DNA from: a virus
DNA length: 64,000 bases
Virus record (IMG/VR): IMGVR_UViG_3300042330_000875
Location: 32,001 to 96,000 of that record
Direction: 5' to 3' (one strand)
The notes under the pieces are model-generated. The model was not told where the DNA came from and searched no databases. It saw only the letters and a program-made list of their open reading frames with translations. Shown here piece by piece: positions 4,905-52,182 of the stretch (its first letter is position 1; every line of letters starts with the position of its first letter). The translations under genes and the position numbers were made by a program.

Positions 4905-5213
4905 TTAGCTCCATTTTAAAATCATTTCTACTTGAAAAGCGTTATCTTGAATTGGGTGATCTTTTAACCAATCATGGACATTATCATATATTTTGTTATT
5001 TAAACAAAAAGAATATTTCTCATTGGGCCAAATAACTGCTGGTCCAGTTAATCGATGCCAAATATAATCTTTTTCACACCAAACTTTATGACTGCTTTCT
5101 AAATCTTCAAAAGCAGGTGTATTTTCATCAGGTGAAGAAATTTCATATAATGGCATATCATTAGGATCATCAGTAGTAAATTTTTCACCATTTACATAAT
5201 AACGGTATGTCAT
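4905..5213 (-). CDS. HRLTGPA family protein copy 1 (tail type Q)
   Basis: YYVNGEKF..ISSPDENTPA..WHRLTGPA..QDNAFQVEMILKWS. Confidence 0.85.
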   Translation of the reverse strand: MTYRYYVNGEKFTTDDPNDMPLYEISSPDENTPAFEDLESSHKVWCEKDYIWHRLTGPAVIWPNEKYSFCLNNKIYDNVHDWLKDHPIQDNAFQVEMILKWS

Positions 5214-5677
5214 CTCATTAAATCAAATTGAGAAAATAATGGTCCGATTTCATCTTTATTACCAAAATAATAAAATACAGTCATTTCTTCACGCAAACAA
5301 AGACGAACGATTTTTCCACTTTCAATTTTAAAATTTTCTGTAACTGTAATATCATTATCTAAACATTTTACAATTTCTTCATCAGCCCAAAATGGATAAG
5401 TTGGATCGATAACAACATCTTTAAAAAATGTATAATTTTTATTAAAATCTTCAATTTGTTTATAAGATGCAGTTAAAGCAATTGTTGTACCAAATCCATT
5501 GCCTGAACGAATCCAAAGATCAAATAATTCATTATTGATTAAACTTGATGGATTGGTAAGATAATCATAAACAAATTTTGTCCCAGCATGATTTGCTTGA
5601 GCACAGGCTTTACCAGGATTCATACTATATAAATCACTTGGGATTAAAAGATAAAGAATAGGGGTTGTTGTAGTCAT
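5210..5677 (-). CDS. Peptidyl-tRNA hydrolase 2 (PTH2)-like protein
   Basis: MNPGKACAQANHAG motif. Confidence 0.7.
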   Translation of the reverse strand: MTTTTPILYLLIPSDLYSMNPGKACAQANHAGTKFVYDYLTNPSSLINNELFDLWIRSGNGFGTTIALTASYKQIEDFNKNYTFFKDVVIDPTYPFWADEEIVKCLDNDITVTENFKIESGKIVRLCLREEMTVFYYFGNKDEIGPLFSQFDLMR

Positions 5678-5732
5678 TAATTTTTCCTCTTAAATTTTTA
5701 TCATTATAAATTAATATCAATTATTAGTCAAG

Positions 5733-5761
5733 AAAAAAGGGGAAATTTAAATTTCCCCTTT
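5733..5761. terminator. Bidirectional intrinsic terminator
   Basis: AAAGGGGAAATTTAAATTTCCCCTTT palindrome. Confidence 0.7.
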
Positions 5762-5778
5762 ACACATTTATATGTAAT

Positions 5779-6234
5779 TTAAAATAATTGTTTTAGTAAC
5801 TTAATTTGTTCTAATGTAATATTTTCCCAATCAACAACATTATTATCAATTGTAATTTTAAGAATTTCTTTTTTAGAAAATGGTTCGTTAAAATTAATAG
5901 TTACTTTATGGGGAATTTGTTCAGTTTTTCGTTTAGTTGGTATAAGAATTTCCCAAGGGTCTTTTCCCCTATTATCATTTGGTACTTCAATATTTTTATA
6001 TGTATAAACAGTTCCAGAAATATTTTTATGCGTAACATCTTCAACATCCAAATAGTTTACATTTGGATATTTATCAGCATTACCATTGATTTGATTTAAA
6101 ACCATTAGTGCTTGTTTATATTCATATAATTTATGATATTTATAAAATAGATGTTTGTTTGAATTATAAAGAATTTTTTCTTCTTTATTATTTTCTATAA
6201 AATCATTTATTGCCATATGTAATGTTGTTTTCAT
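5779..6234 (-). CDS. Hypothetical protein
   Basis: 151-aa ORF with AGGA RBS. Confidence 0.7.
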   Translation of the reverse strand: MKTTLHMAINDFIENNKEEKILYNSNKHLFYKYHKLYEYKQALMVLNQINGNADKYPNVNYLDVEDVTHKNISGTVYTYKNIEVPNDNRGKDPWEILIPTKRKTEQIPHKVTINFNEPFSKKEILKITIDNNVVDWENITLEQIKLLKQLF

Positions 6235-6244
6235 AATTTTTCCT

Positions 6245-6550
6245 TTATGAATATTTTAATAACATTTCTACTTGAAATGCATTAACTTGATTTGGGTGTT
6301 CTTTCAACCAATTATGAATATTTTCATAAAATTTACCAATTAACCAAAAATATTCTTTTCCATCATTGTCAATAAACGCAGGGCCAGTTAATCGATGCCA
6401 ACAATTTTTTTCTTTACACCAAAGTTTTTCGCCTGTTATCAAATCTTCCCAAGCTGGTGTTTCTTCATTTAATGAACAAATTTTATCATGTGGAATTTTA
6501 TAATAATCTTTAGTTGTAAATTTCTTACCATCAATATAATAAACAATCAT
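6245..6550 (-). CDS. HRLTGPA family protein copy 2 (tail Q)
   Basis: Family motifs. Confidence 0.85.
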   Translation of the reverse strand: MIVYYIDGKKFTTKDYYKIPHDKICSLNEETPAWEDLITGEKLWCKEKNCWHRLTGPAFIDNDGKEYFWLIGKFYENIHNWLKEHPNQVNAFQVEMLLKYS

Positions 6551-6552
6551 TT

Positions 6553-6855
6553 TTATTCTCGTAATTTAAAAATAGTCAAATTTGCACTATTAAGTTCTTG
6601 TTCAAAATGATCAAAAACATCTTCATAATGAACAAATAGATGAACTTCTTTTTCAGCAGCAAATTTCATAATTACAGGAAGATTATCTTCTTTTCCAATA
6701 GTTAATTGATAAGCAGTAATTTTTTCTTGAAAATCTTTTGGATATTGAGGAAAAGCTAACGTATCCAAGGCGCGCATAACAGCATCTTCAATTTTAAAAA
6801 TAATAACATAACCTTGCCCACCAACCCATTTATCTGTAAAAGCATATTTATTCAT
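6553..6855 (-). CDS. Hypothetical protein
   Basis: Likely start ATG 6855 after GGAGA RBS. Confidence 0.65.
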   Translation of the reverse strand: MNKYAFTDKWVGGQGYVIIFKIEDAVMRALDTLAFPQYPKDFQEKITAYQLTIGKEDNLPVIMKFAAEKEVHLFVHYEDVFDHFEQELNSANLTIFKLRE

Positions 6856-7711
6856 AACTAATCTCCAATTTTGTTTTGTTTTGTTTAAAAGAATATTTTC
6901 CAAACTTAAATGAAATTTTTGTATTTTCATTTTTTAAGTTTAGTTGTTTTAAGTATGTTTCAACTGAACGATATTTGACATTTTGAATATTATTTCTATT
7001 AAGAAATCCCATCCAAGCATTTTTTTGTCGAACGAAGGATAATTGAAACATTGCAGTTAAGTCAATAACATTATTTTGAAAAAATTTATTCCAATCTTCT
7101 AACGCCAATTCATCAATTAATTGTTCTTGTTCACTTAAAACATTAACTGTTTGTGAAACAATTTGTTTCACATCTTTATAATGTGTTTCAATGTTTGGAA
7201 TTAAAGTATTTCTAATAAAAACACGATTTCTATTATTGTCAAAATTAGTTGGATCATTGATCCAATCAAGAAAATTTTCTCGGCAATAATTTAAAATATC
7301 TTTTTTAAAAAGATTTAGCAATGGTCGATAAATTGTAAAATTTTCAAATTCAACAATTTCTTTAATTCCAGTTAATCCACGCAAGCCTGATCCACGAAAC
7401 AATCTTAGAAAAAATGTTTCGATATTATCATCTTTATGATGCCCAACTAAAATTTTATCACCATGTTTTGCTAAAGCAGAATATCGTTGATTTCTTGCTG
7501 TGTTTTCAAAATTACCCTTTTTACAAAAAACATTTTCTACAATTAAATGAAAATTGTGTTTTTTAGCAAAATTTTTACAAAATTCTTCTTCAAGTTTATC
7601 TTGATTGGATTGGTTATGATTTACATAAACAATTTTAGGATTTAAATGTTGTGTTTTATGCCAAAGACAAACCGAATCTGCCCCGCCCGAAAATCCTAAA
7701 ACCCAATTCAT
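6848..7711 (-). CDS. tilS: tRNA(Ile)-lysidine synthetase
   Basis: PP-loop SGGADS, ENTARNQRY, GHHKDDNIET, RGSGLRGL, RPLL, DPTN..RVFIRN. Confidence 0.92.
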   Translation of the reverse strand: MNWVLGFSGGADSVCLWHKTQHLNPKIVYVNHNQSNQDKLEEEFCKNFAKKHNFHLIVENVFCKKGNFENTARNQRYSALAKHGDKILVGHHKDDNIETFFLRLFRGSGLRGLTGIKEIVEFENFTIYRPLLNLFKKDILNYCRENFLDWINDPTNFDNNRNRVFIRNTLIPNIETHYKDVKQIVSQTVNVLSEQEQLIDELALEDWNKFFQNNVIDLTAMFQLSFVRQKNAWMGFLNRNNIQNVKYRSVETYLKQLNLKNENTKISFKFGKYSFKQNKTKLEISYE

Positions 7712-7723
7712 AATAATCTCCTT

Positions 7724-7942
7724 TTATTTTAATTTACATTGAATTAATTCATTATCTTTTTCTTTTCTTTCTGTACGTCTATCAAAGTCTCTAGTTTGTC
7801 CATAATAAACATAACGGTTTTCAATAATAAATTGTCTTGCCGCCATACATGTATCGTATGAAGAAAATTCTTGCATACTAACATTATTAGCTGGTCCTGA
7901 TAAATTACCAATAACAATTAAAACATATGCAATATTATTCAT
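7724..7942 (-). CDS. Small hypothetical, possibly exported protein
   Basis: Hydrophobic N-terminus, FSSYDTC..C. Confidence 0.6.
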   Translation of the reverse strand: MNNIAYVLIVIGNLSGPANNVSMQEFSSYDTCMAARQFIIENRYVYYGQTRDFDRRTERKEKDNELIQCKLK

Positions 7943-8144
7943 AATTTCTTCCTTATCTTATAAAAATCGATTAATATATTAGAAAATTTTTTATTATTTG
8001 TCAAGATAATTTACTTCAAGATTTATTAAATCCCAATAACATCCAACAATAAAACCTATTGCAAATAAATGATGTACATAAAAAGTTAAAAAAGCGCTTG
8101 CACATAATACAAGTATAATTAAATTTTCTAAATTAAAAATCGTC

Positions 8145-8339
8145 TTAATCATCATTTTTGTAAAATCCTATAATAGAAATTGCATTTTCCATAAATTCCA
8201 TACCTTGTTCAATTAAAGAATCATTTTGATAACAATCTTCTTCACATGAAATTTTATTTTCATCTCTAAACTCTTTAACCATTTCGTAAAGTTTAATCAT
8301 TTTTTCTTGTTCGTCAATAGAATATTTTTTAAATTTCAT
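8145..8339 (-). CDS. Hypothetical protein
   Basis: ORF with AGGAG RBS. Confidence 0.65.
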   Translation of the reverse strand: MKFKKYSIDEQEKMIKLYEMVKEFRDENKISCEEDCYQNDSLIEQGMEFMENAISIIGFYKNDD

Positions 8340-8354
8340 AATTTACTCCTTTTG

Positions 8355-8436
8355 TAATTTTTGTTAAGTTGCAGTTGTATGAACTAGTCGGAAATAGTGA
8401 GGTTTTCTGCGGCTCTTCATGAATAGAAAATTTATT
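8355..8436. repeat. Intergenic repeat R2, copy 1
   Basis: TAATTTTTGTTAAGTTGyAGTTGTA...TTTTCTGCGGCTCTTCrTGAATAGAAAATTTATT also at 21404-21485. Confidence 0.85.
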
Positions 8437-8449
8437 AGAAATGATAAAA

Positions 8450-8755
8450 TTATGTGTATTTTAACAACATTTCCACTTGAAAGGCATTGTCTTTATTAGG
8501 ATGATGTTTTAACCAATCATTTACATTTTCATATTTTTTTCCATTTAACCAATATTCCAAATATCCATCAGGCCAAATTGATGATGGTCCAGTTAATCGA
8601 TGATTAATATCTCCTTTTTTACACCAAAATTTATATCCTGATTCTAAATTTTCATAAGCAGGCGTATTTTCATTGGGTGAAGAAATTTTATATATAGGAA
8701 TATTTTCATATTTTTTAGCTATATATTTTTCACCATCGATATAATAAATAATCAT
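8450..8755 (-). CDS. HRLTGPA family protein copy 3 (tail Q)
   Basis: Family motifs; start ATG 8755. Confidence 0.85.
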   Translation of the reverse strand: MIIYYIDGEKYIAKKYENIPIYKISSPNENTPAYENLESGYKFWCKKGDINHRLTGPSSIWPDGYLEYWLNGKKYENVNDWLKHHPNKDNAFQVEMLLKYT

Positions 8756-8761
8756 TTTAAT

Positions 8762-8871
8762 TTCTTTCAAATAACGGTTTAATCGCGTTTAGAAGCATGT
8801 TACAGGGGTTTTGAATTGATTTGTGTAATTGAGTAAGTAATTAGCTTAAACGGCTTTAAATCGCTTTAAAA
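8762..8871. repeat. Intergenic repeat R1, copy 1 (between paired family genes)
   Basis: Similar ~110-bp sequence at 22196-22307 and, inverted, at 33277-33388. Confidence 0.85.
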
Positions 8872-9204
8872 TTAATTTTGCAAATACCAAAGAATTTTAT
8901 CTGTTTCAGTAAAAATACCAATGGCATCAAAATACAGATCGGGATTTGGATGATCTTTAAGCCAATCATGAATATTTTCATAATATTTTCCATTAAGATA
9001 AAATTCTTTTGTTCCATCTGACCAAATTCTAGCTGGTCCCGTTAATCTATGATAATTTATTTCTTTTTCACACCAAAATTTAAAACCATCAGCTAAACCT
9101 TCAATTGCTGGCGTTTGTTCATTTAAAGATGATACATTAATAAATAGAATTTTTGAATAATATTTCGTTTTAAACTTTTCACCATCAATATAATAAACAT
9201 ACAT
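8872..9204 (-). CDS. HRLTGPA family protein copy 4 (tail P)
   Basis: Family motifs, HPNPDLYFDAIG..ETDKILWYLQN; start ATG 9204. Confidence 0.85.
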   Translation of the reverse strand: MYVYYIDGEKFKTKYYSKILFINVSSLNEQTPAIEGLADGFKFWCEKEINYHRLTGPARIWSDGTKEFYLNGKYYENIHDWLKDHPNPDLYFDAIGIFTETDKILWYLQN

Positions 9205-9232
9205 TATTTTATTCCTTATAAAAGATTTGCAG

Positions 9233-11344: not shown

Positions 11345-11690
11345 CTAAATTTTTAAACCTTTCATAATCTTCACCACTATCAATTAAAATATAACACCAT
11401 GCTTTATTAGCATGTTTATTATCTAAAATGTTGATTTCTTCTCTTTGGTAAAATTTACCATTACTTTCCAAATAATCTAAATCTTCTAAAGTTAATATAT
11501 CAACTTGATAAATTTCTCCTTCAACTGAATTATTTCCTTTAATCATACCAGGAAAACTTCCTAAGTTAATTAAATCAAAATTAAATTCAGTTCTTGCATT
11601 TCCTAAAAATTTATTATTTGGATTATTAATAATTAAATCATTATTATGAAAATTTTTCTTTAAACTTCCATAAACAAAAACATTATACAT
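11283..11690 (-). CDS. Gamma-glutamylcyclotransferase (AIG2-like)
   Basis: VFVYGSLK, VEGEIY, LDYLE..YQR; RBS AAGGAG. Confidence 0.85.
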   Translation of the reverse strand: MYNVFVYGSLKKNFHNNDLIINNPNNKFLGNARTEFNFDLINLGSFPGMIKGNNSVEGEIYQVDILTLEDLDYLESNGKFYQREEINILDNKHANKAWCYILIDSGEDYERFKNLDASNANRRITWSQDKTINFR

Positions 11691-11826
11691 ATTTTTACTC
11701 CTTTTAACAAAGATTAACTTATTTTTTGGTTTTGTCAAGCTAAACATTTTAAAGAATTTTATATTCTAAAAAATTAACAATTTCTTTTAAATAATTAAAA
11801 TATCTATGTTTTCTGAGGATTTTTAA

Positions 11827-14634: not shown

Positions 14635-14643
14635 GGTAATTAA

Positions 14644-20623: not shown

Positions 20624-20652
20624 AAAAAGGCGGGAAATTTCCCGCCTTTTTT
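20624..20652. terminator. Bidirectional terminator
   Basis: Perfect palindrome GGCGGGAAATTTCCCGCC with A/T runs. Confidence 0.8.
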
Positions 20653-20959
20653 ATCCCCAACGTTCAATCATTTCTTTCTTAAAAGTTTCATCTTGATTAG
20701 GATGGTCTTTTAACCAATCTTGAATATTTTCATAAAGTTTATCATTTAACCTAAAAGAATAACTTCCATCAGGCCAAATTCTTGCAGGTCCAGTTAATCG
20801 ATGAAATTGCCAACCTTTTTTGCACCAAAGCTTTTCGCCTGTTTCTAAATTTTCATAAGCAGGAATTTCTTCATCTGGTGAAGAAATATCCAGCCAAGGA
20901 ATGTCATCTTCATTATCAGTTGTGTATTTTTTACCATCAACGTAATAAATATAATTCAT
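20651..20959 (-). CDS. HRLTGPA family protein copy 5 (tail K)
   Basis: Family motifs, QDETFKKEMIERWG. Confidence 0.85.
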   Translation of the reverse strand: MNYIYYVDGKKYTTDNEDDIPWLDISSPDEEIPAYENLETGEKLWCKKGWQFHRLTGPARIWPDGSYSFRLNDKLYENIQDWLKDHPNQDETFKKEMIERWG

Positions 20960-21002: not shown

Positions 21003-21311
21003 TTATCCCCAACGTTCAATCATTTCTTTCTTAAAAGTTTCATCTTGATTAGGATGGTCTTTTAACCAATCATGGATGTTTTGGTATTTTTTATCATTTA
21101 AATAAAAATCATAACTTCCATCGGGCCAAATAATAGCTGGTCCAGTTAATCGATGCCAAATTCTACCTTTTTCAGTCCAAATTTTTTCACCTGATTCTAA
21201 ATCTTCATAAGCAGGTGTATTTTCGTCTGGTGATGAAATTTTATCAAACGGAATTTTATAACCTTCTTTTGTTTTGTATTTTTTACCATCAACGTAATAA
21301 ATATAATTCAT
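21003..21311 (-). CDS. HRLTGPA family protein copy 6 (tail K), tandem duplicate of copy 5
   Basis: Identical 5' and 3' ends to copy 5. Confidence 0.85.
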   Translation of the reverse strand: MNYIYYVDGKKYKTKEGYKIPFDKISSPDENTPAYEDLESGEKIWTEKGRIWHRLTGPAIIWPDGSYDFYLNDKKYQNIHDWLKDHPNQDETFKKEMIERWG

Positions 21312-21317: not shown

Positions 21318-21392
21318 TTCTCCTTTGTTCGGTTGCGACGTTTCCGTCTTGATAAATTGATAATAGAAAATTTTTCGTTTTCTGTCAAGTGA
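21318..21392 (-). promoter_or_regulatory. Conserved early promoter/leader cassette
   Basis: TTGACA-17-TATTAT, GACG-GAAA-CGTC hairpin, AAGGAG. Confidence 0.8.
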
Positions 21393-21403
21393 TTTTTTAA
21401 ATT

Positions 21404-21485
21404 TAATTTTTGTTAAGTTGTAGTTGTAGAAACTCATTCAAAAAACCTATATTTTCTGCGGCTCTTCGTGAATAGAAAATTTATT
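21404..21485. repeat. Intergenic repeat R2, copy 2
   Basis: Matches 8355-8436. Confidence 0.85.
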
Positions 21486-21519
21486 GATATAATCAAATTA
21501 TAGGTATTGGATACGTATT

Positions 21520-21891
21520 TTAGTTATTAATTTCTGATATTTCAAAATAGTTTTTATTTTTTAAATTAAAATAATCTTTATAAACTCCCTTAACTATTTC
21601 ATAAATTAATTTTGTTAATCGATAGGTTTCTTTATTAGAGATAAATTTATCATTTACAATTAATAAATGTTCGTTCTTTTGAAAAACATGTTCGATTGCA
21701 ATAGTTAATTTTAAATTTTTATCGATAAATTTATTATTAGATAAATCAACTAAGTAAACAGTAAAATCTTTAATATAAATTGATGATATTATTTTTTTAT
21801 TATTTTGCATACAATTTTGATTTATTTCAGCAATTAATTTTTTAATTTTAGAAAAATAATATTTTATTAATAATCGATAAATTATGACCAT
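21520..21891 (-). CDS. Hypothetical protein
   Basis: 123-aa ORF. Confidence 0.55.
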   Translation of the reverse strand: MVIIYRLLIKYYFSKIKKLIAEINQNCMQNNKKIISSIYIKDFTVYLVDLSNNKFIDKNLKLTIAIEHVFQKNEHLLIVNDKFISNKETYRLTKLIYEIVKGVYKDYFNLKNKNYFEISEINN

Positions 21892-22190
21892 TTTAGTAAC
21901 ATTTCAATTTGAAAGGTATTATCTTGATTTGGATGAAATGATAACCAATATTTAATATCATTATAATAACAAACGGAGTTTAAATAAAAATATTTTTTAC
22001 CATCAGGAAAAATTTCTGCGGGTCCAGTTAATCGATGATAAGCTCTTAATTTTTTACACCAAATTTTTTCACCTGTTAAAGTATCTTCATACGCAGGTAT
22101 TTGTTCATTTGGTGAAGAAATATAATCCCAAGGTACTTTTTTCTTTTTTGATTTTATAATTTTTTTACCATCAATATAATAAATTTCCAT
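21882..22190 (-). CDS. HRLTGPA family protein copy 7 (tail Q)
   Basis: Family motifs. Confidence 0.85.
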   Translation of the reverse strand: MEIYYIDGKKIIKSKKKKVPWDYISSPNEQIPAYEDTLTGEKIWCKKLRAYHRLTGPAEIFPDGKKYFYLNSVCYYNDIKYWLSFHPNQDNTFQIEMLLKWS

Positions 22191-22195
22191 TTATC

Positions 22196-22307
22196 ATTCT
22201 TTCAAATAGCGGTTTAATCGCGTTTAGAGGCACATTGCAGAGGTTTTAGATTGATTTAGGTAATTTGGATAACCAATTAAGACAATAGGCTTTAAATCGC
22301 TTTAAAA
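22196..22307. repeat. Intergenic repeat R1, copy 2
   Basis: Matches 8762-8871. Confidence 0.85.
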
Positions 22308-22640
22308 CTAATTTTGTAAAAACCATAAAATTCTATCGGCTTCATTCATACCTAATGTATCAAAATAAAGATCGGGATTTGGATGATCTTTAAGCCAATC
22401 ATTTACATTTTCATATTTTTTTCCATTTAAATAAAATTCTTTAAATACATCAGAACAAATCCTGGCAGGACCAGTTAAACGATGTAAAACTTTATCTATT
22501 TGATACCAAAGTTTATATCCAGTTTCTAAGTTTTGACAAGCAGGCGTATTTTCATCTGGTGACGAAATATAATACTGAGGTATTTCTTTATAATTATAAG
22601 TTTTAAATTTTTCACCATCTATATAATAAATATATTTCAT
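22308..22640 (-). CDS. HRLTGPA family protein copy 8 (tail P)
   Basis: Family motifs. Confidence 0.85.
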   Translation of the reverse strand: MKYIYYIDGEKFKTYNYKEIPQYYISSPDENTPACQNLETGYKLWYQIDKVLHRLTGPARICSDVFKEFYLNGKKYENVNDWLKDHPNPDLYFDTLGMNEADRILWFLQN

Positions 22641-25783: not shown

Positions 25784-26077
25784 ATGTTTGATAAAAATTT
25801 AGAATTTTTAATAAAATTTATACCTAATAAATCATTTAGAGAATTTATTAATGATGAAATTATTATTGTTAGAATACAAAACCATTCAATACAAATTTTT
25901 AATTATCCAAACGGAGAAGAAAATATAATTTTTAAATCATATATTAAAGATGATAATTTAATAAAAGAAATTAATACAAATATTGATATTGAAAAATTAA
26001 TTAATGATATTACGGGTTTGCTTATAGCATCGGATTTGTCATGGTGGAAAATCTATAGCGCTTATATAAGATTATGA
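25784..26077 (+). CDS. Hypothetical protein
   Basis: ORF with AAGGA RBS. Confidence 0.6.
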   Translation: MFDKNLEFLIKFIPNKSFREFINDEIIIVRIQNHSIQIFNYPNGEENIIFKSYIKDDNLIKEINTNIDIEKLINDITGLLIASDLSWWKIYSAYIRL

Positions 26078-26380
26078 ATATTTTAAAAGCATTTCAATTT
26101 GAAAGGAATTGTCTTGATTTGGATGTATTGATAACCATTTATGAATATTATCATAAAAATAATCATCTATCCAAAATTGAATTTTTCCGTTAAAACAAAT
26201 TCTTGCTGGTCCTGTTAAGCGATGCCATCGCCATCCTTTTTCACACCAAAGTTTTTCACCTGTTTCTAAAACTTCATAAGCAGGTGTATTTTCATCAGGA
26301 GAGGAAATTTCATCAAAAGGAATTGTATTGTAATTATCGGTTGTAAATTTTTTATTATCAATATAATAAATATATCTCAT
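26072..26380 (-). CDS. HRLTGPA family protein copy 9 (tail Q)
   Basis: Family motifs. Confidence 0.85.
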   Translation of the reverse strand: MRYIYYIDNKKFTTDNYNTIPFDEISSPDENTPAYEVLETGEKLWCEKGWRWHRLTGPARICFNGKIQFWIDDYFYDNIHKWLSIHPNQDNSFQIEMLLKYS

Positions 26381-26699: not shown

Positions 26700-27008
26700 T
26701 TATGTGTATTTTAACAGCATTTCCACTTGAAAGGCGTTATCTTGATTTGGGTGATCTTTTAACCAATCATGTACGTTTTTATAAGCGTTATCATTTAGCC
26801 AAAAGTGTTCTTGTCCATCAGAATTAATTACTGCGGGTCCAGTTAAGCGATGCAAAATTAATCCTTTATTACACCAATATTTTTTACCTGTTGATAAATT
26901 TTCCCAAGCAGGTGTATTTTCATCGGGTGATGAAATTTTTGACAAAGGGATTTCATGAGTTTTATCAGTTGTAAATTTTTCACCATCAACATAGTAAACA
27001 TATGTCAT
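26700..27008 (-). CDS. HRLTGPA family protein copy 10 (tail Q)
   Basis: Family motifs. Confidence 0.85.
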   Translation of the reverse strand: MTYVYYVDGEKFTTDKTHEIPLSKISSPDENTPAWENLSTGKKYWCNKGLILHRLTGPAVINSDGQEHFWLNDNAYKNVHDWLKDHPNQDNAFQVEMLLKYT

Positions 27009-27027: not shown

Positions 27028-27333
27028 TTATGTGTATTTTAATATCATTTCTACCTGAAAGGCATTGTCTTGATTTGGGTGTACTTTTAACCAATCATTT
27101 ACATTGTCATATCTTTTATCATTTAAATAAAATCGTACTCTTCCATCATCCCAAATAAAAGCAGGTCCGGTTAATCGATGATGAATACCGCCATTTAAAC
27201 ACCAAAATTTAAATCCTGATTCTAAATTTTCAAAAGCGGGTGTTCGTTCATTAGGTGAAGAAATTTCTAACAAAGGAATTACACTATTATCTTCAGTTAG
27301 AAATTTTTCACCATCAATATAATAAATAATCAT
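27028..27333 (-). CDS. HRLTGPA family protein copy 11 (tail Q)
   Basis: Family motifs. Confidence 0.85.
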   Translation of the reverse strand: MIIYYIDGEKFLTEDNSVIPLLEISSPNERTPAFENLESGFKFWCLNGGIHHRLTGPAFIWDDGRVRFYLNDKRYDNVNDWLKVHPNQDNAFQVEMILKYT

Positions 27334-32938: not shown

Positions 32939-33276
32939 ATGAGTTACGTTTATTACATTGATGGTAAAAAACATCTAAGTGAAAATAGAAATGAAAAAAA
33001 TTCCTTGGCTTAGAATTTCTTCACCAGATGACAATACGCCAGCATTAGAAGACTTATCTGATGGATATAAGTTTTGGTGTTTAAAAGGATATGTTTGGCA
33101 TCGCTTAACTGGTCCTGCTGAAATTTATCCAAACGGAAATTTATTATATGGTTTGAATGGAAGAATATTTAGAAACATAAAAGGGTGGATTAAAAAATCA
33201 TCCAAATCCAGAACTTTATTTTGATGCAATTGATTTGAATGAAACCGATAGAGTTCTTTGGTATTTGAAAAATTAG
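32939..33276 (+). pseudogene. HRLTGPA family copy 12 (tail P), two +1 frameshifts in poly-A runs
   Basis: MSYVYYIDGKK from ATG 32939; shifts at A7 (32994-33000) and A6 (33192-33197); tail ETDRVLWYLKN in a third frame. Confidence 0.8.
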
Positions 33277-33388
33277 TTTTAAAGCGATTTAAAGCCTATT
33301 AAGTTAATTAAGCACCCAACTACCTAACTCAATCCAACCCCCTCTGTAATGTGCCTCTAATCGCATTTAAACAGCTATTTGAAAGAAA
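33277..33388. repeat. Intergenic repeat R1, copy 3 (inverted)
   Basis: TTTTAAAGCGATTTAAAGCC...GTGCCTCTAATCGCATTTAAACAGCTATTTGAAAGAA. Confidence 0.85.
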
Positions 33389-33393
33389 ACTAA

Positions 33394-33726
33394 ATGACAC
33401 ATGTTTATTATATTGATGGAAAGAAATTTACAACAAATAATTATGGTGATATTCCTCGGTATGAAATTTCATCACCAAATGAAGAAACACCAGCTTATGA
33501 AGACACAATTGCTGGTTATAAAGAATGGCACGAAAAAGATTGGATTATTCATAGATTAACCGGACCTGCGAGAATTTGGCCTGATGGAAAAGAAGATTTT
33601 TATTTAAATGATAAAAGATATGAAAATGTAAAAGAATGGTTAAAGGATCATCCAAATCCCGATTTGTATTTTGATGCCTTGGGTATGAATGAAACTGATA
33701 AGGTTCTTTGGTATTTGAAAAATTAA
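33394..33726 (+). CDS. HRLTGPA family protein copy 13 (tail P)
   Basis: Family motifs. Confidence 0.85.
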   Translation: MTHVYYIDGKKFTTNNYGDIPRYEISSPNEETPAYEDTIAGYKEWHEKDWIIHRLTGPARIWPDGKEDFYLNDKRYENVKEWLKDHPNPDLYFDALGMNETDKVLWYLKN

Positions 33727-35061: not shown

Positions 35062-35394
35062 ATGAGATACATTTATTACATTGATGGTGAAAAATTTACA
35101 ACCGATAGAGAAGATATTCCTTGGGAAGATATATATTCACCTAATGATAATACATCCGCTTTTGAAAATTTATTAACTGGTCATAAAATTTGGTGTAAAA
35201 GAGGATTTATTCGTCATTGTTTAATCGGACCAGCAACAATTTGGCCTGATGGATCAGAATATTTTTTTATAAATGGTGAACCATATGAAAATATTCATGA
35301 TTGGTTAAAAGATCACCCAAATCCAACATTATATTTTCATAAAATTGGAGTTTTTACAGAAACCGATAAAGTTCTTTGGTACTTACAAAATTAA
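35062..35394 (+). CDS. HRLTGPA family protein copy 14 (tail P, motif variant HCLIGPA)
   Basis: Family motifs. Confidence 0.85.
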   Translation: MRYIYYIDGEKFTTDREDIPWEDIYSPNDNTSAFENLLTGHKIWCKRGFIRHCLIGPATIWPDGSEYFFINGEPYENIHDWLKDHPNPTLYFHKIGVFTETDKVLWYLQN

Positions 35395-36984: not shown

Positions 36985-37287
36985 TTAGTTCCAAAGTTTA
37001 AGCATTTCTTTCTTGAAAGCTTCGTCTTGATTTGGATGGTATTTTAGCCATTCATCAACATTTTCATATGGTTGATCATTTAACCAAAATTCTTTCCCAT
37101 CTGACCAAATAATGGCAGGTCCAGTTAATCGATGCCAAATATTTCCTTTTTCACACCATCGTTTATAACCAGTTTCTAAATTTTCAAATGCTGGCGTATT
37201 TTCATCGAGTGATGAAATATCATGTCTAGGAATATTATTAAAATCATCGGTTAAAAATTCTTTTCCATCAATATAAAATTTATACAT
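36985..37287 (-). CDS. HRLTGPA family protein copy 15 (tail K)
   Basis: Family motifs; start ATG 37287 after AAGGAG. Confidence 0.85.
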   Translation of the reverse strand: MYKFYIDGKEFLTDDFNNIPRHDISSLDENTPAFENLETGYKRWCEKGNIWHRLTGPAIIWSDGKEFWLNDQPYENVDEWLKYHPNQDEAFKKEMLKLWN

Positions 37288-40854: not shown

Positions 40855-41256
40855 ATGAGTAATGTAGTTTTTGATCCACACGCAAGAGAACAAAAAGAAG
40901 CAACTTTTGAACGAGTTATTGAAAATGTTAATCCATTTGAAAATGATAGCATTTGGACACAAAAGTTAGCTTTAAATTGGAGCGTGTTAGCGGTTTATGA
41001 TTGTAGTAAATTGGAAAATATGTTTGGCGTATTTCCTGAAACTGCAAAAATTGCTGATTATTTTAAACAACAAAACATCGATGTTTATGTTGAAAATCTT
41101 CCTTGGATTAATCGTTATGGTAAAAACGGCATGAAAATGAACAAACTTAAACCAGCCGATCATGTAATTAGAGTTTATGCTAATTCAAAAGAAGTTTTAG
41201 AAAATTCACCTTTTGAATGGGTTCAATTTCAAATTAAGGATGAAAAATATTCTTAA
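40855..41256 (+). CDS. Hypothetical protein
   Basis: ORF with AGGAG RBS. Confidence 0.7.
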   Translation: MSNVVFDPHAREQKEATFERVIENVNPFENDSIWTQKLALNWSVLAVYDCSKLENMFGVFPETAKIADYFKQQNIDVYVENLPWINRYGKNGMKMNKLKPADHVIRVYANSKEVLENSPFEWVQFQIKDEKYS

Positions 41257-41588
41257 TGTTTATTTATTATGTTGATGGAAATAAATTTACAACCGATAAT
41301 AAAGATGGAATTAATTTTTATGATATTTCATCCCCCAATGATGATATTCCTGCTTTTGAAGATTTATCTGATGGATATAAATCTTGGTTTGAAAAAAAAG
41401 TAATTTGGCATCGATTAACTGGGCCAGCTAGAATTTGGTTTGATGGGACAGAAGAATTTTATTTAAATGGAATTGGTTATCCTTCTATAAAAGAATGGAT
41501 TAATGATCATCCAAATCCCGATTTATACTTCGATGCAATTGGAATAAAAACAGAAACTGAACGAGTTTTGTGGTTTTTACAAAATTAA
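41256..41588 (+). CDS. HRLTGPA family protein copy 16 (tail P)
   Basis: Family motifs. Confidence 0.85.
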   Translation: MFIYYVDGNKFTTDNKDGINFYDISSPNDDIPAFEDLSDGYKSWFEKKVIWHRLTGPARIWFDGTEEFYLNGIGYPSIKEWINDHPNPDLYFDAIGIKTETERVLWFLQN

Positions 41589-42189: not shown

Positions 42190-42501
42190 ATGACTTATAT
42201 TTATTATATTGATGGTGAAAAATTTACAACCGATACTAAAAATGAAATTCCTCGTAATGAAATTTCATCTCCTGATGAAATTACACCTGCACTTGAAAAT
42301 TTATCAACAGGAGTTAAAATTTGGTGTAAAAAAGGATTTATTTGGCATCGTTTAACTGGACCAGGGATTATTCTCTCAGATGGTAAAAAAGAGTTTTATT
42401 TAAATGATAAATGTTATTTTAGAAATGTAAAAGATTGGTTAGCAGATCACCCAAATCAAGATAACGCCTTTCAAGTAGAAATGCTTTTAAAATATTCTTG
42501 A
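42190..42501 (+). CDS. HRLTGPA family protein copy 17 (tail Q)
   Basis: Family motifs. Confidence 0.85.
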   Translation: MTYIYYIDGEKFTTDTKNEIPRNEISSPDEITPALENLSTGVKIWCKKGFIWHRLTGPGIILSDGKKEFYLNDKCYFRNVKDWLADHPNQDNAFQVEMLLKYS

Positions 42502-42559
42502 CAATGAATATTGTTTCTCATATAATCTATTATCATTTTTAGATTGGGGGAGTAAAAAA

Positions 42560-44138: not shown

Positions 44139-44163
44139 AAAAGGAAGCTTTTAGCTTCCTTTT

Positions 44164-44286: not shown

Positions 44287-44355
44287 TTTGTATTTTCCTT
44301 TCGTTTAATTGATATTGCAATTTAAAACATTTTTCTTTTTATGTCAACAACTTTT

Positions 44356-45021: not shown

Positions 45022-45082
45022 TTTATTTTCCTTAACTATAATCGTTAATTTTATAATAATAAATTATTTTTGTCAATAGAAA

Positions 45083-47056: not shown

Positions 47057-47143
47057 CTCTTATCTTATTTAAAAATTTAATTGTTGATATTAAATAATAT
47101 TCCAGGTAACATCTAATTTGTTGTTATTGGAAAGGAATTAAGA

Positions 47144-47392
47144 ATGGAAAATGTACTTTTTGTAAATTTGCTGGTTGAATATATTGCTTTTCTTGATAAG
47201 AAAGCAGTTAAAATTGCCGTTATCGATCTTCCAGATGAAGTTAAAAATGATTTTCAAATAAAACTTCGTCAATTTAATATTGATGGTAAGCTTTATCGTA
47301 TTGAAAATGAAAGCATTCCAAATTCATTATCTAATCGAGTAAAAGAAAATAATCTTGATCTTGAAGTTGGAAAAGTTATTTGTACTTGGTAA
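47144..47392 (+). CDS. Hypothetical protein
   Basis: ORF with AAGGA RBS. Confidence 0.6.
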   Translation: MENVLFVNLLVEYIAFLDKKAVKIAVIDLPDEVKNDFQIKLRQFNIDGKLYRIENESIPNSLSNRVKENNLDLEVGKVICTW

Positions 47393-47786
47393 CTATTTCT
47401 TGATCGAGTAAAAGAGGAAATGTTAATGGTGGAAGATTTTCAATTTTTTCTTCCACCATATAACTTAAAGTTATATGAGGATTGTATTTCTCATAATTTG
47501 TTTGAATTCCCAACAATTTCAACATATTAAATCGATTATTCAAATAATTGCTTTTTATTATAGCAACTAAAATAAGATTATCTTTACTATCTTTCCAATA
47601 TTCCCAACGATCAAAAATTAAATCATTAATTGGTTTTTGAATTGAAAAATTTACATCAACGGTACTATCACAAATTGTACAATGAAAAAATTCAGTAAAA
47701 TTTTTTATATTATTATCCAAACAAAATTTTTCTAAGCTTTTGTTTGTTTCTTCTTTAAAATCAACATAAAAATAAAATCCAGACAT
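47376..47786 (-). CDS. acb1: Anti-CBASS 2H phosphodiesterase (T4 gp57B-like)
   Basis: GFY..F.EET..L, HCTIC.S.V, S.YL..R..LG, YNPHITLSY, LLDQE follow the T4 Acb1 layout. Confidence 0.85.
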   Translation of the reverse strand: MSGFYFYVDFKEETNKSLEKFCLDNNIKNFTEFFHCTICDSTVDVNFSIQKPINDLIFDRWEYWKDSKDNLILVAIIKSNYLNNRFNMLKLLGIQTNYEKYNPHITLSYMVEEKIENLPPLTFPLLLDQEIVTKYK

Positions 47787-47814
47787 TAAATATTTAAAAC
47801 AAGTGGGTGAAAAA

Positions 47815-48180
47815 ATGTTTACTGGAATTACTGGATATTTAACTGTAGGTGTAGTTTTATTATTTTTAATGGTTGGTTTGGGTGCTTGGTATTATAAAAC
47901 AAGCTATGAAAGTTTATTAGCAAAAAATGCTGAAATTTCTCAACAATTAACAATAACAACAGAAACTTTAAAACAAACAAAAGAACAAATTGCGGAAATT
48001 GCCGAACAGCAAAAAATCCTTAATAACTCATTAGATGCAATTAGAAAAAAATCTATTACAGATAAAAGAACAATCAATCAATTAAATTTAAGTAAAGAAA
48101 CAATTCCTGATAATAAAGAAGCTGAACAAAAAGCAAATGAAGAAATTTTAAAATCTTTACGATTAGGAGATGCTAAATGA
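47815..48180 (+). CDS. Inner-membrane spanin (Rz-like)
   Basis: N-terminal TM helix plus coiled coil; followed by a lipoprotein gene. Confidence 0.7.
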   Translation: MFTGITGYLTVGVVLLFLMVGLGAWYYKTSYESLLAKNAEISQQLTITTETLKQTKEQIAEIAEQQKILNNSLDAIRKKSITDKRTINQLNLSKETIPDNKEAEQKANEEILKSLRLGDAK

Positions 48181-48503
48181 AATTTTTAATTTTATTATTA
48201 CCATTATTTTTAGTTGGTTGTGGATATTTTACTAAACCAGAAGTTTATGTAAATGATCCTATTCCTGTAGTTGCTCCTTTAGTTCAACCTTTAGAATTAA
48301 AAAAAATTACAGTTAATATCGCCAACTCAAGTGATTTTTTTGATAAACCCAACCAAAGATTAATTATCTTAACTGAAGATAATTTCAAAATTTATTTGGA
48401 AAACAATGTTGAGTTTTTTCGATATATTTCTGAACAAGAAAAAATAATCGAATTTTACGAAACTTTACAAAAAAGAAATTTACCAAAACCCGTTGACAAA
48501 TAA
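48177..48503 (+). CDS. Outer-membrane spanin (Rz1-like) lipoprotein
   Basis: Lipobox LVGC, Pro-rich segment. Confidence 0.7.
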   Translation: MKFLILLLPLFLVGCGYFTKPEVYVNDPIPVVAPLVQPLELKKITVNIANSSDFFDKPNQRLIILTEDNFKIYLENNVEFFRYISEQEKIIEFYETLQKRNLPKPVDK

Positions 48504-48553
48504 CAAAAAATTTATTATCCTTAAAGTCTAAAAAATATTTTAAGGAGATATAA

Positions 48554-48862
48554 ATGAGTTTTGTTTTTTACATTGAGGGTAATGAATTTACAACTCAAAA
48601 TTTTTGGAAAGTTCCTATTAATCAAGTTTCTTCACCAAATGATGAAACGCCAGCAATCGAAAATTTACGTACAGGGCACAAGTTTTGGTGCGAAAAAGGA
48701 TGGAAATTTCATCGATTAACAGGTCCAGCCGTAATTACGGGTGATGGATATAAAAAATTTTGTTTAAATGGAGAATATTACGAAAATGTAAGAGATTGGC
48801 TAAAAGAACATCCAAATCAAGATGAAACATTTCAAAAAGAAATGTTAGAAAAATACACTTAA
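48554..48862 (+). CDS. HRLTGPA family protein copy 18 (tail K/Q hybrid)
   Basis: Family motifs; own TTGACA promoter and terminator 48866-48895. Confidence 0.85.
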   Translation: MSFVFYIEGNEFTTQNFWKVPINQVSSPNDETPAIENLRTGHKFWCEKGWKFHRLTGPAVITGDGYKKFCLNGEYYENVRDWLKEHPNQDETFQKEMLEKYT

Positions 48863-48948
48863 ACAAAAGAGGAAGAATTAGTTCTTCCTCTTTTTCTCTA
48901 TTGACAATTAACTAAAATAGTTTATATTAATTGTAAAGGAGATTTAAT

Positions 48949-49251
48949 ATGAAAAAATATATTTTTCTATTTTTGTTAATTAGTTTTTCAGCAAAAGCAA
49001 ACAATCTTTGCTTTCAAATGGAACATCAAATTAAAGAAGATATGAATTATGTTATTGGTCAAGCTTGGTTAAGGAATCCTGATGATTATATGTTTCATAA
49101 TTCCATTAAAGTTCAGCTTGACAATTTAACATATATCACGTTAAATCGTATGCATGAAAAGGCGCGAACACAAAAAGATTGTTCGCAAGAATATTATCAA
49201 ATTCAAAAAATTTTAAAAAACATGATGAATGTAATTCAAGGAGTTAATTAA
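48949..49251 (+). CDS. Exported hypothetical protein
   Basis: Signal peptide ending FSAKA. Confidence 0.65.
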   Translation: MKKYIFLFLLISFSAKANNLCFQMEHQIKEDMNYVIGQAWLRNPDDYMFHNSIKVQLDNLTYITLNRMHEKARTQKDCSQEYYQIQKILKNMMNVIQGVN

Positions 49252-51470
49252 TGAATAAACTAGCGTATCAAAACCTTTATCAAACTGCTTTAATTTATGC
49301 TGAACAAAATAATCACGATTATATTACCGTTGATCAAATTGTTGCAGCAATGTTACTCGATAAAGATTTTTCTGAAATTTTAAAATTTGCAAGTGTTGAT
49401 CTTGAACTTGCGTTAACAACAATTACAACTGTATGTAATCAAAGTTATGCGCGCATTGATAAACATCAAGACGATGTTGCAAGGATTCTTGAAAATGTTT
49501 TAAAAACTCGCGGTGGTTATAAACAAGGCTTTTTAGCTGATCAAAGCTTTGATCAAATTTGTAAAAAACTTGCACAACATAATCAAGATTATGAAACAAA
49601 TTTTACAAAAGTAGATTTTATTCAATATATTATCGACACCTTTCCTACAACTTCATCAATTATTATTCTTGAAAAATGTGGCTTAAATAAAGAAAAATTA
49701 AAAGAATATAAACAGATTGCTAAAGAAGGCTATGTAAATCAATTTGGCGTTGATCTTACTAATTTAGCAAAAAACGGAAAAATTGATCAAATTATTGGAC
49801 GTGATGAAGAAACATTAAAAATTCTTCTAGGACTTTTACGTAAACGCAAATCTAATGTTATTTTAACTGGCGATGCTGGTGTTGGTAAAACCGCAATTGC
49901 TGAAGGCTTGGCTTTAAAAATTGCAAATAACGAAGTTCCTGAAAATCTTCAAAATAAACGAGTGTTTAATCTTGATTTAAATTCTGTTATCGCTGGTACA
50001 AAGTATCGCGGCGAATTTGAAGAACGTATGAAAAAAATCATTGATGAATTATCCCAAGATGAAAATACAATTCTTTTTATTGATGAAATTCATCAACTTA
50101 TGGGAATGAACAATGGTGAAAATTCAGCTATGAATGCTGCACAAATTTTAAAACCCGCATTAGCTCGTGGAACTTTAAAATTAATTGGCGCAACCGATAC
50201 GGAGAATTATCGTAAAATTCTACAAAAAGATAAACCATTAATGCGCCGATTCCAAGAAATTGTTATTGATGAACCTTCTGCTGTTTATACAAAACAAATT
50301 CTCTATGGTTTAAAAGAAAGTTTTGAAAATTTTCATAATGTAAAATTCTCAAATTTGGCTTTAGATGCAGCAGTTGATTTATCTGGTCTTTATATTACAA
50401 ATCGTAAATGGCCTGATAAAGCTATCGATTTAATCGATGCAGCGGGCGCTAGAGCATTGTTTCATAAAAAAGAATCAGTTGAAGAAAGTGATATTGAATT
50501 TGAATTAACTCAAATCACAAAAATTCGCCCACAAAAAGCTAAAAAAGAAGAATCAAGCATTTATGATTTAGCAAAAAATATTAAACAACGTATTTTTGAA
50601 CAAGATCAAGCAATTGAAACATTAGTTGATAGTGTTGCTATTGCAAAATGCGGAATGCGCGATACAAATAAACCTTTAGGTCGTTATCTTTTTGTTGGCC
50701 CAAGTGGAACAGGCAAAACAGAAGTTTGTCGTGAATTAGCTAAAGAATTAAACATTCCCTTGCTCAAATATGATATGAGTGAATATATGGAAGGGCACTC
50801 AATTAGTAAATTAATTGGTTCACCTCCTGGTTATGTTGGATATTCTGATGGTTCAAGTGGTTCAGGAAAATTAATCAATGATATTGAAACCAATCCAAAT
50901 GCCATTTTACTATTAGATGAATTTGAAAAAGCGCACCCAAGTATTTTTAATGCATTCTTGCAAGTTTTAGATGATGCTAAATTAACTTCAAGCGATGGTA
51001 AAACAGTAAAATTTAATAATGTTATTATCATTATGACAAGTAATGCTGGTGCTGCTAAATCTGAAAAAGCCTCAATTGGGTTTAATTCAAGTGAAAATAA
51101 TTTACAATCAAATGTTATGGAAGCAGTTGAAAAAACCTTTTCTCCTGAGTTTCGTAATCGGTTAGATGAAGTTGTTGTTTTCAATCGTCTTAGTGAAGCG
51201 GCAATCAAACAAGTTGCTAAAAAGTTTCTTGATCGTCTTAATAACCAATTAAGTGAAAATTTAAATCAATTAACGTATTCTGAAGCGGTTGTTGATTTTC
51301 TTGCTAAAAAAGGTTATAACCCAAAAATGGGAGCACGCCCAATGGAACGTGCAATTACTGATTTTGTTAAAAAGCAAATTTCAAAAAAGATGTTTGAAAA
51401 TCGTCATTTTGAAAATGTAAAAGTTTCATTAGACGTAATTGATGAAGAAATTAAAGTAGAGATTGCATAA
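49251..51470 (+). CDS. clpA: ClpA-like AAA+ unfoldase
   Basis: GDAGVGKT, AGTKYRGEFEER, PDKAIDLID, GPSGTGKT, LIGSPPGYVG, IGF ClpP-docking loop, FSPEFRNRLD; no middle coiled coil. Confidence 0.92.
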   Translation: MNKLAYQNLYQTALIYAEQNNHDYITVDQIVAAMLLDKDFSEILKFASVDLELALTTITTVCNQSYARIDKHQDDVARILENVLKTRGGYKQGFLADQSFDQICKKLAQHNQDYETNFTKVDFIQYIIDTFPTTSSIIILEKCGLNKEKLKEYKQIAKEGYVNQFGVDLTNLAKNGKIDQIIGRDEETLKILLGLLRKRKSNVILTGDAGVGKTAIAEGLALKIANNEVPENLQNKRVFNLDLNSVIAGTKYRGEFEERMKKIIDELSQDENTILFIDEIHQLMGMNNGENSAMNAAQILKPALARGTLKLIGATDTENYRKILQKDKPLMRRFQEIVIDEPSAVYTKQILYGLKESFENFHNVKFSNLALDAAVDLSGLYITNRKWPDKAIDLIDAAGARALFHKKESVEESDIEFELTQITKIRPQKAKKEESSIYDLAKNIKQRIFEQDQAIETLVDSVAIAKCGMRDTNKPLGRYLFVGPSGTGKTEVCRELAKELNIPLLKYDMSEYMEGHSISKLIGSPPGYVGYSDGSSGSGKLINDIETNPNAILLLDEFEKAHPSIFNAFLQVLDDAKLTSSDGKTVKFNNVIIIMTSNAGAAKSEKASIGFNSSENNLQSNVMEAVEKTFSPEFRNRLDEVVVFNRLSEAAIKQVAKKFLDRLNNQLSENLNQLTYSEAVVDFLAKKGYNPKMGARPMERAITDFVKKQISKKMFENRHFENVKVSLDVIDEEIKVEIA

Positions 51471-51496
51471 GGCAATCTCTTTTTTGGAGTTATAAC

Positions 51497-51853
51497 ATGG
51501 ATTTTAAATTAGCAAAAGTATTATATGAAAAAAACGAATTAACACAAGGCGTTATTATTAAAGCAAAATATACGGCAGTTGATATGGCAGGCAGGCATTC
51601 TTTTGAAACCATAGATGAATTTTTAGTAATTTATGCTTCTATTAAGGCAGAAATGTTAATTTTACATTGTAGTCATAAAAAATCAGGTATGCGAAGAAAT
51701 TTAACACATGATTGTATTTTAGAAATTAATGGCATGACACCTGATAGAATTGCTGATAGTATTGATTTAACAATTGATGGAAATGCTAAAAAAATAGGCA
51801 ATAAACGTGGAAGAAAAACAAATGAAGAGCGCGCAAGGTTAGCTAATTTATAA
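51497..51853 (+). CDS. Hypothetical protein
   Basis: ORF; basic KRGRK tail. Confidence 0.7.
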   Translation: MDFKLAKVLYEKNELTQGVIIKAKYTAVDMAGRHSFETIDEFLVIYASIKAEMLILHCSHKKSGMRRNLTHDCILEINGMTPDRIADSIDLTIDGNAKKIGNKRGRKTNEERARLANL

Positions 51854-52182
51854 TGTTAATTTATTATATTGATGGTGAAAAATTTTACACTGAAGATTTT
51901 GATGATATTCCTCTGCATGATATTTCTTCACCTGATGAACAAACACCCGCATTTCAAGACAGTTTAACAAGTGAAAAACTTTGGTGTGAAAAAAATTATC
52001 GTTGGCATCGATTAACTGGACCAACATTAATTCGTCCAGATGAAACTGTGGGATTTTGGTTAAACGATAAAAAATACCATAATGTCCGGGATTGGATTAA
52101 AGAACATCCAAATCCAGATTTATATTTCGATGCATTAGGTATGAATGAAACAGACAGAGTGTTATGGTTTTTACAAAATTAA
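51853..52182 (+). CDS. HRLTGPA family protein copy 19 (tail P)
   Basis: Family motifs. Confidence 0.85.
   Translation: MLIYYIDGEKFYTEDFDDIPLHDISSPDEQTPAFQDSLTSEKLWCEKNYRWHRLTGPTLIRPDETVGFWLNDKKYHNVRDWIKEHPNPDLYFDALGMNETDRVLWFLQN

Follow-up and report, generated by a model that had tools for sequence, protein, structure and literature searches.

What a large phage might gain from carrying dozens of diverged copies of one small gene is the question raised by a stretch of 64,000 nucleotides from an uncultured virus (bases 32001–96000 of the linear 146,077-bp IMG/VR contig IMGVR_UViG_3300042330_000875; about 45% complete according to CheckV; 27.6% GC), referred to here as the window. Genes for proteins of fixed length (approximately 100–110 amino acids) that share the motif HRLTGPA are scattered along it, and an earlier note had listed 19 of them by their left coordinates and proposed that they form a diversified library of binding proteins. 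We built a profile hidden Markov model (HMM) from the 15 frames with an exact HRLTGPA found by a six-frame motif scan of the window and ran it against every stop-to-stop frame. The search returned exactly those 19 genes with E values of 1e-35 to 1e-55, the next best frame having an E value of 0.19; given this gap the family is sharply delimited, far beyond chance. Our preferred reading, to which we give about an even chance of being right, is a lineage-specific expansion into a diversified repertoire of intracellular binding proteins, which would differ in specificity and have host or phage proteins as their targets.

Alignment of the 19 copies bore out the common scaffold described in the earlier note, with an N-terminal YYIDGxKF hairpin, a polar ISSPDENTPA segment, KxW, HRLTGPA, FxLN...Y and W..HPN. 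Each copy is a single end-to-end match to the family HMM of approximately 100 residues rather than a tandem array of units of about 23 residues, the only exceptions, with two modules, being contig 139224–139688 and the metagenomic protein P0114. The copies carry one of two discrete and sharply distinct C-terminal tails: the short tail ends roughly HPNQDxxFQxEMLLKY and the long tail roughly HPNPDLYFDALG..ETDKVLWYLQN. As had been claimed, 18 of the 19 genes are intact, the exception being the frameshifted copy at 32939. The whole 146-kb contig has 43 profile matches, equivalent to about 41 genes; of these matches just five segments, located at three sites, are broken or partial. A crude gene call of the contig gave 241 open reading frames (ORFs), 39 family matches among them, making this the sole large paralogue group (no other group in the same call exceeds four members). 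The family thereby accounts for about one called ORF in six and for 8.7% of the contig DNA (8.8% of the window), close to the 10% estimated previously.

Variation was analysed in 72 distinct near-full-length copies from five contigs. About 30 positions are almost invariant (including Y7, Y8, S29, P35, A36, K45, W47, H55, R56, L57, G59, P60, Y78, W84, H88, P89, N90 and F95) and 18 are hypervariable, with entropies of 2.8–3.6 bits (HMM columns 19–21, 24–26, 41, 44, 46, 52, 54, 62, 64, 65, 68, 70, 77 and 79), a set that lies close to the variable positions given in the earlier note (approximately 13–24, 44–52, 60 and 66–70). By comparison with the phage's own proteome the hypervariable sites are enriched in Trp (5.0-fold), Tyr (2.5-fold) and Arg (2.2-fold), despite a genomic composition of 27.6% GC that disfavours those codons, and their composition is interface-like. 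From copy to copy the predicted pI runs from 4.4 to 9.8, a spread on which a uniform role in DNA mimicry or DNA binding was rejected. No silent-site conservation was seen at the motif or at the gene ends.

An AlphaFold2 model of the protein encoded at 26700–27008, computed with the 19-row alignment, has a mean pLDDT of 96.5 and consists of beta-hairpins followed by two C-terminal helices, the tail being confidently helical. Along the strands, entropy alternates between adjacent residues (about 3.1–3.6 versus 0.1–0.9 bits): model residues 42–45, for example, have values of 3.1, 0.2, 3.3 and 0.1 bits, with similar alternation at residues 60–62, 66–71 and 74–77. This pattern argues for a sheet with one face variable and the other conserved and packed against the helices, and implies that the variable residues would lie on that single face and an adjacent loop, as the earlier note had suggested checking. 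No solved structure matched the model: Foldseek against the PDB gave only E values above 1, a second search returned nothing and the best VIA-align Z score was 3.2. Look-alikes in the ESM Atlas and BFVD (TM scores of 0.6–0.7) are uncharacterised proteins of approximately 100 residues from uncultured tailed phages, together with several proteins of phage Atu_ph07 and giant-virus proteins; one BFVD entry carries the annotation 'MORN repeat-containing protein'. For a tandem relative, P0129, the model reached a pLDDT of 40 and was discarded as unreliable.

If the repertoire reading is right, one small cytoplasmic protein would have been expanded to perhaps 80–90 genes per full genome, by extrapolation. 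The YYIDGxKF hairpin, the ISSPDENTPA loop, the KxW and HRLTGPA strands, the WLxxHPN helix and one of the two helical tails would be held constant, and each paralogue would bind a different protein in the infected cell, of phage or of host origin, with host defence proteins among the candidates. The repertoire would grow by duplication, including that of a two-gene cassette of approximately 1 kb, and would be reshuffled by homologous recombination between copies. Of the library proposed in the earlier note, the fixed scaffold, the defined set of variable positions and the intact copies are borne out; binding itself, and the anti-defence and protease-adaptor roles, are still proposals.

Maximum likelihood (ML) codon models on a fixed tree gave ratios of nonsynonymous to synonymous substitution rates (omega) of 0.03–0.05 for core sites, 0.13 for intermediate sites and from 0.26 (F3X4) to 1.02 (F1X4) for hypervariable sites, which evolve 8–20 times faster than the core. 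Strong purifying selection acts on the core and, with the intact copies, supports the view that the genes are kept under selection; diversifying selection, with omega above 1, was not demonstrated at the hypervariable sites under either codon frequency model. Parsimony counts overstate omega. Pairwise NG86 dN/dS values near 1 were set aside, since saturation and AT bias at the synonymous sites (median dS 0.79; GC at third codon positions, GC3, 16%) make them meaningless.

This shortfall in omega weighs against a diversified repertoire, as do several further points. Even these values are biased upward, the hypervariable class having been picked by its variability, and relaxed constraint on an exposed face is a possible alternative explanation for the variable sites. 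The saturation and AT bias of synonymous sites affect the codon models as well, and recombination breaks their assumption of a single tree. That the variable residues share one face is deduced from the strand alternation and not from coordinates, and the surplus of Trp and Tyr could in part be left over from aromatic positions in the ancestral repeat. Finally, the same phage was found in several other samples at 99.9–100% nucleotide identity, where seven single-nucleotide polymorphisms in 11.5 kb all fall outside family genes, such that these genes are not hotspots of difference among the few near-identical strains available. Contigs from four lake runs at 80% likeness had seemed to offer differing letters and joints, which were rejected as evidence of strain variation: paralogues from other loci or phages cross-map onto the family genes and make such differences unreadable.

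An adaptor model, with a constant dock and a variable face, is also conceivable given the conservation of the polar loop and of the two tails. The loop and the HRLTGPA/HPN surface would here act on one common partner or ligand, such as a small molecule or the ClpA-like/ClpP protease that the phage itself encodes, and the variable face would be either a target-selecting surface (an adaptor) or an unconstrained exposed surface (dosage or redundancy). We consider this unlikely, though it would account for the unusual conservation of a polar segment that is mostly coil (S29 97%, P35 99%, A36 96%) and for the two discrete tail types; it also sits well with the fact that the window encodes ClpP and two AAA+ proteins and with an omega at variable sites that is not above 1. 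However, the isolates PA5oct and Atu_ph07 have the same Clp genes and lack the expansion, dosage by at least 40 copies needs no near-random residues rich in Trp, Tyr and Arg, and the helical tail in the model may be a mere structural cap.

Reshuffling between copies, as the repertoire reading would have it, was examined by tree and by run length. The tree of the core region is nearly a star. Tail type is distributed at random on this tree (23 changes, versus 24.5 ± 2.2 for shuffled labels), and the one strongly supported pair consists of a short-tail and a long-tail gene with a common N-terminal half up to HRLTGP and divergent sequence thereafter. A GENECONV-like test found six pairs with identical runs of 79, 50, 46, 41, 39 and 37 polymorphic sites, all above the maximum run of 36 in 30 column permutations. 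The copies are therefore mosaic and recombine with one another.

The individual copies are arranged as follows in the window. Intact short-tail genes lie on the minus strand at 4905–5213 (HMM E value 2.9e-54; included in the 19-row alignment), 6245–6550 (2.1e-52), 8450–8755 (1.2e-51; ATG at 8755, HRLTGPS variant), 20651–20959 (1.6e-55; ERWG variant), 21003–21311 (6.5e-55), 21882–22190 (1.3e-47), 26072–26380 (9.7e-54), 26700–27008 (1.3e-55; the modelled protein), 27028–27333 (2.8e-52; starting 2 nt past the NAD synthetase gene) and 36985–37287 (1.4e-51), and on the plus strand at 42190–42501 (1.6e-51) and 48554–48862 (2.5e-52). Intact long-tail genes lie on the minus strand at 8872–9204 (4.3e-51) and 22308–22640 (4.8e-50) and on the plus strand at 33394–33726 (7.4e-51), 35062–35394 (1.3e-42; HCLIGPA variant), 41256–41588 (3e-49) and 51853–52182 (4.8e-46), the last two each overlapping the stop of the upstream gene by 1 nt. 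The remaining copy, at 32939–33276 on the plus strand, is a pseudogene of the long-tail type (1.1e-35 on its middle frame) broken by two frameshifts at A-runs (A7 near 32990 and A6 near 33193), which could reflect true decay, slippage-prone sites or assembly errors. The gene at 20651–20959 is present in identical form in other lake samples, and its nearest paralogue is the copy at 21003–21311 (83.7% nucleotide identity). Outside the window, contig 138616–139688 holds three adjoining family genes, among them one interrupted by TGA and one that encodes a protein of 154 residues containing two incomplete family modules; the cluster looks like a site where copies fuse or degrade.

Some copies travel together in the cassette of approximately 1 kb, which has the order long-tail gene, spacer of about 117 nt, short-tail gene and 3' element of about 110 nt, followed by a promoter of the form TTGACA-N17-TATATT. 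The cassette recurs at about 70–80% nucleotide identity in at least four places in the contig (8340–9204 and 21882–22640 on the minus strand and 32939–33726 on the plus strand of the window, and contig 13.3–14.5 kb) and in three related contigs; the recorded occurrences include L013, L016, L017, L020 and L021. The conserved spacer occupies 8756–8871 on the minus strand, between the long-tail copy at 8872 and the short-tail copy at 8450; 22191–22307 on the minus strand (117 nt), between the copies at 22308 and 21882; and 33277–33393 on the plus strand, between the copies at 32939 and 33394. The non-coding 3' element lies at 8340–8449 on the minus strand, after the short-tail copy at 8450, with the core TTCTATTCATGRAGAGCCGCAGAAAAY ... 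CAACTGCAACTTAACA, and occurs a second time in the window at 21376–21519 on the minus strand, where a TTGACA-type promoter follows. It is found at six places in the contig and eight in related contigs, 13 of which were aligned. The non-coding parts of the cassette are at least as conserved as its genes, and the spacer and 3' element gave no Rfam match and no consensus RNA fold; they may serve as promoter, leader or recombination site. A promoter-plus-leader module, TTGACA-N17-TATATT followed by ...TCAAGACGGAAACGTCGCAACCGAACAAAGGAGAATGAATT-ATG, was also noted at 21376–21519 (minus strand) and in the leaders of the copies at 20651 and 21003; it is found ahead of different genes both here and in the related contigs and looks like a shared regulatory cassette. 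Co-folding of the long-tail and short-tail proteins of a cassette pair gave scores of 0.37, 0.00 and 0.00, which weigh neither for nor against a heterodimer.

A unit of this kind, with conserved non-coding flanks and about 75% nucleotide identity between occurrences, together with mosaic copies dispersed singly or as pairs among core genes, is what might be seen if selfish or neutral cassettes, moron- or homing-like, had spread by recombination with no benefit to the phage. Yet broken copies are confined, among the 43 matches, to five segments at three places, with 39 copies called as ORFs, and the core omega is 0.03–0.05; intact frames and constraint of this strength make a purely selfish or neutral reading fit poorly. 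GC3 is fully ameliorated, at 0.164 in family genes versus 0.162 in other genes, which marks the family as long resident and not as a recent import. The copies contain no nuclease, transposase or reverse transcriptase domain: Pfam and PHROG searches for homing endonuclease domains (HNH, GIY-YIG, LAGLIDADG and others) found none and no nuclease fold was matched. There is no RVT_1 match, as a diversity-generating retroelement (DGR) would require, in the 146-kb contig (about 45% of the genome), and the variation in the family is between paralogues and not between alleles. Nor do the copies have an excess of promoters or terminators of their own. The idea that they sit at operon ends, as morons do, was rejected on the same counts, as terminators lie within 70 nt downstream of 11% of family genes versus 13% of others and sigma-70-like promoters upstream of 14% versus 21%, with no enrichment. 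We therefore regard selfish spread as scarcely probable.

In their immediate gene context, 37 of the 39 copies are co-oriented with a neighbour. The earlier note had described the copies as often translationally coupled; approximately 13 of 39 begin between −4 and +2 nt relative to the stop of the upstream gene, a spacing that makes coupling plausible for one third of copies. Neighbours include gp32-like, RecA/UvsX-like, helicase, NAD synthetase, PP-loop ATPase, NUDIX, ClpP, two AAA+ and tail-fibre-like genes. That some copies adjoin tail-fibre-like and tail genes would be expected if the family comprised virion-associated small proteins (decoration, internal or ejected) present as many paralogues, for which T4-type phages, with their hyperplastic internal-protein loci, offer a loose precedent. 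Most copies, however, lie among genes of replication, recombination and metabolism (gp32-like, RecA-like, helicase, NAD synthetase, NUDIX and ClpP), and the proteins lack signal and cleavage motifs and match none of the PHROG structural families, making a virion role improbable. Elsewhere in the window, an IS1595-family (ISXO2-like DDE) transposase gene with a zinc ribbon lies at 58892–59869 on the minus strand, where the local GC content is 38–39% compared with about 27%; this is a possible insertion sequence within the phage genome.

The phage itself was compared with isolates. The RecA-like protein has 51% identity to those of PA5oct-type phages and 41% to that of Salicola phage SCTP-2; the ClpA-like protein has 41–46% identity to those of PA5oct and Atu_ph07; and one tail protein has 47–51% identity to those of the Caulobacter phages CcrSC and CcrColossus. 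The label 'phiCbK-like' is too narrow, as the Caulobacter phages are closest for the tail gene only and the RecA-like and ClpA-like genes are nearest to those of PA5oct, Atu_ph07 and SCTP-2. The source is an uncultured jumbo phage of lake water, with nearest isolates that are also jumbo phages; at least eight studies contributed the public runs containing the stretch, all of them lake-water metagenomes. The phage is unusual in its 27.6% GC (GC3 16%) and in having nearest isolates at just 40–51% protein identity; its genes include those for ClpP, a ClpA-like protein, a second AAA+ protein, NAD synthetase, and gp32-like and RecA-like proteins. The very low GC content points to a low-GC freshwater bacterium as the host.

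Four other IMG/VR contigs (23–108 kb, about 26.5% GC) carry the family at equal density, with 28, 7, 10 and 12 matches. At the nucleotide level they share almost no non-family genes with the present contig, and positional orthologues could thus not be compared across them. A word-indexed search of 5.8 billion proteins found close relatives in 87 clusters, all metagenomic; of the named clusters all but one are titled 'hypothetical protein'. Searches for the family came back empty for 50,697 phage records (tblastn, E ≤ 1), for the genomes of Atu_ph07 and SCTP-2 (profile search) and for 185,579 prokaryote species, each represented by a single genome, in a pattern screen with a reach of close relatives; in the PA5oct genome, profile search gave one weak single-repeat match and no expansion. 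Copy number in related phages, a comparison recommended in the earlier note, is therefore high in the four contigs and shows no expansion in the three isolates, and these absences confine the expansion to one uncultured lake-phage lineage.

The small proteins had no match in Pfam, PHROGs or NCBIfam, and hence none to a characterised family that would already explain the expansion. More distant relatives are abundant. An exhaustive profile search of 1.84 billion representatives gave 7224 matches at E ≤ 1e-3; among those listed, a dozen or so are full-length relatives of approximately 100 residues and most are long proteins with 5–22 tandem units (9–22 in the top ones) aligned to profile positions of about 30–77. 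The best profile matches to these tandem HRxDGPA proteins, which come from phages, giant viruses and bacteria, reach an E value of 1e-59. Their unit reads WxxNGxxHRxDGPA and their modules end in a WxLNGxxY-plus-helix cap, a feature the family shares along with the common pattern G-x-K-x-W ... HR-x-x-GPA ... DG ... (F/W)-x-LNG-x-x-Y. The family protein differs in being a single capped module, where the tandem proteins have up to 22 repeats each, and in its HRLTGPA motif, with one extra residue ahead of the His, in place of HRxDGPA. The long relatives match Pfam DUF6745 (PF20530) at 27–62 bits, whereas five family members gave no match to it at E ≤ 1. DUF6745 is a family of no known function, with no mention in the literature searched, and the only domain fusions found in the long relatives are to other repeat domains (LRV and HEAT). 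By sequence likeness, then, the family protein is one capped module of the widespread HRxDGPA beta-hairpin repeat (MORN-like and DUF6745-related). The profile matches agree with the earlier statement that such repeats usually form tandem arrays in phage and giant-virus proteins, but its description of an undescribed system was too strong for what is a lineage-specific expansion within a widespread and named, if uncharacterised, repeat superfamily.

Eukaryotic MORN proteins (the SETD7 N-domain, radial-spoke and central-pair proteins) also form antiparallel sheets from short beta-hairpin repeats, and MORN sheets are protein-binding surfaces. The likeness is a looser one: neither family members nor tandem relatives match Pfam MORN or MORN_2 (PF02493 or PF07661), and alignment to MORN-containing chains (SETD7 and ciliary proteins) gave VIA-align Z scores of just 2.4–2.9. 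As small beta-hairpin repeat proteins with diversified surfaces, the copies also bring to mind immunity proteins, namely antitoxins of the YwqK class of MORN variants directed against polymorphic or abortive-infection toxins, and the best PDB alignment, itself weak, is to chain 6u08_B of a deaminase toxin–immunity complex (Z 3.2). That score is beneath the usual noise level, neither NCBIfam nor Pfam gave a match to YwqK or MORN_2, and the copies adjoin replication and metabolism genes and no toxin genes; we regard this explanation as highly improbable. Kinship with WD40 proteins was rejected as well: an E value of 4.8e-25 to 2ymu is the sum over 14 identical repeats at 6–9 bits each, the i-Evalue per stretch is 10–500, and no WD40 chain appears among the fold matches. 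Residues 26–59 (SSPDENTPA..L.TG.K.W..G...H.LTG) do resemble the cyanobacterial WD40 repeat consensus, at 6–9 bits per repeat, a likeness we judged coincidental.

Amplification of a small domain in a very large phage genome has a parallel in Bacillus phage G, which has about 35 zinc-ribbon genes in a lineage-specific expansion (Iyer et al. 2021, PMC7824862). Both cases involve tens of copies of one small domain; they differ in fold, and the family described here is denser (41 genes in 146 kb) and has a defined hypervariable face. In a marine study, long-read viral data contained MORN-annotated repeat proteins at 37 times the frequency seen in assemblies (PMC9238414). The present family is striking in scale, and what distinguishes it is the fixed single-module architecture, the high density of about one ORF in six and the clear variable face; the superfamily itself has already been named, and the family is a good entry point to its function.

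Were the proteins target-specific binders, this lineage would devote nearly a tenth of its DNA to a diversified repertoire acting inside the cell. Giant viruses are known for such a strategy (ankyrin, F-box and MORN expansions), but it is barely documented in phages. The very common, function-less HRxDGPA/DUF6745 repeat would at the same time acquire a testable role. The module would also be a candidate engineering scaffold, being small and confidently modelled, with no solved relative and with about 18 near-random positions tolerated. A broader proposal, which we find doubtful as a whole and put forward tentatively, is that germline 'binder repertoires' evolve repeatedly in large phages: approximately 80–90 single-module proteins in this case, each with a different Trp/Tyr/Arg-rich face on an unchanging scaffold that keeps its docking loop or tail conserved, would be reshuffled by recombination and would neutralise a changing set of host defence proteins or deliver them to the phage Clp protease. 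Such a set, if this broader proposal is true, would be the phage equivalent of a family of innate immune receptors.

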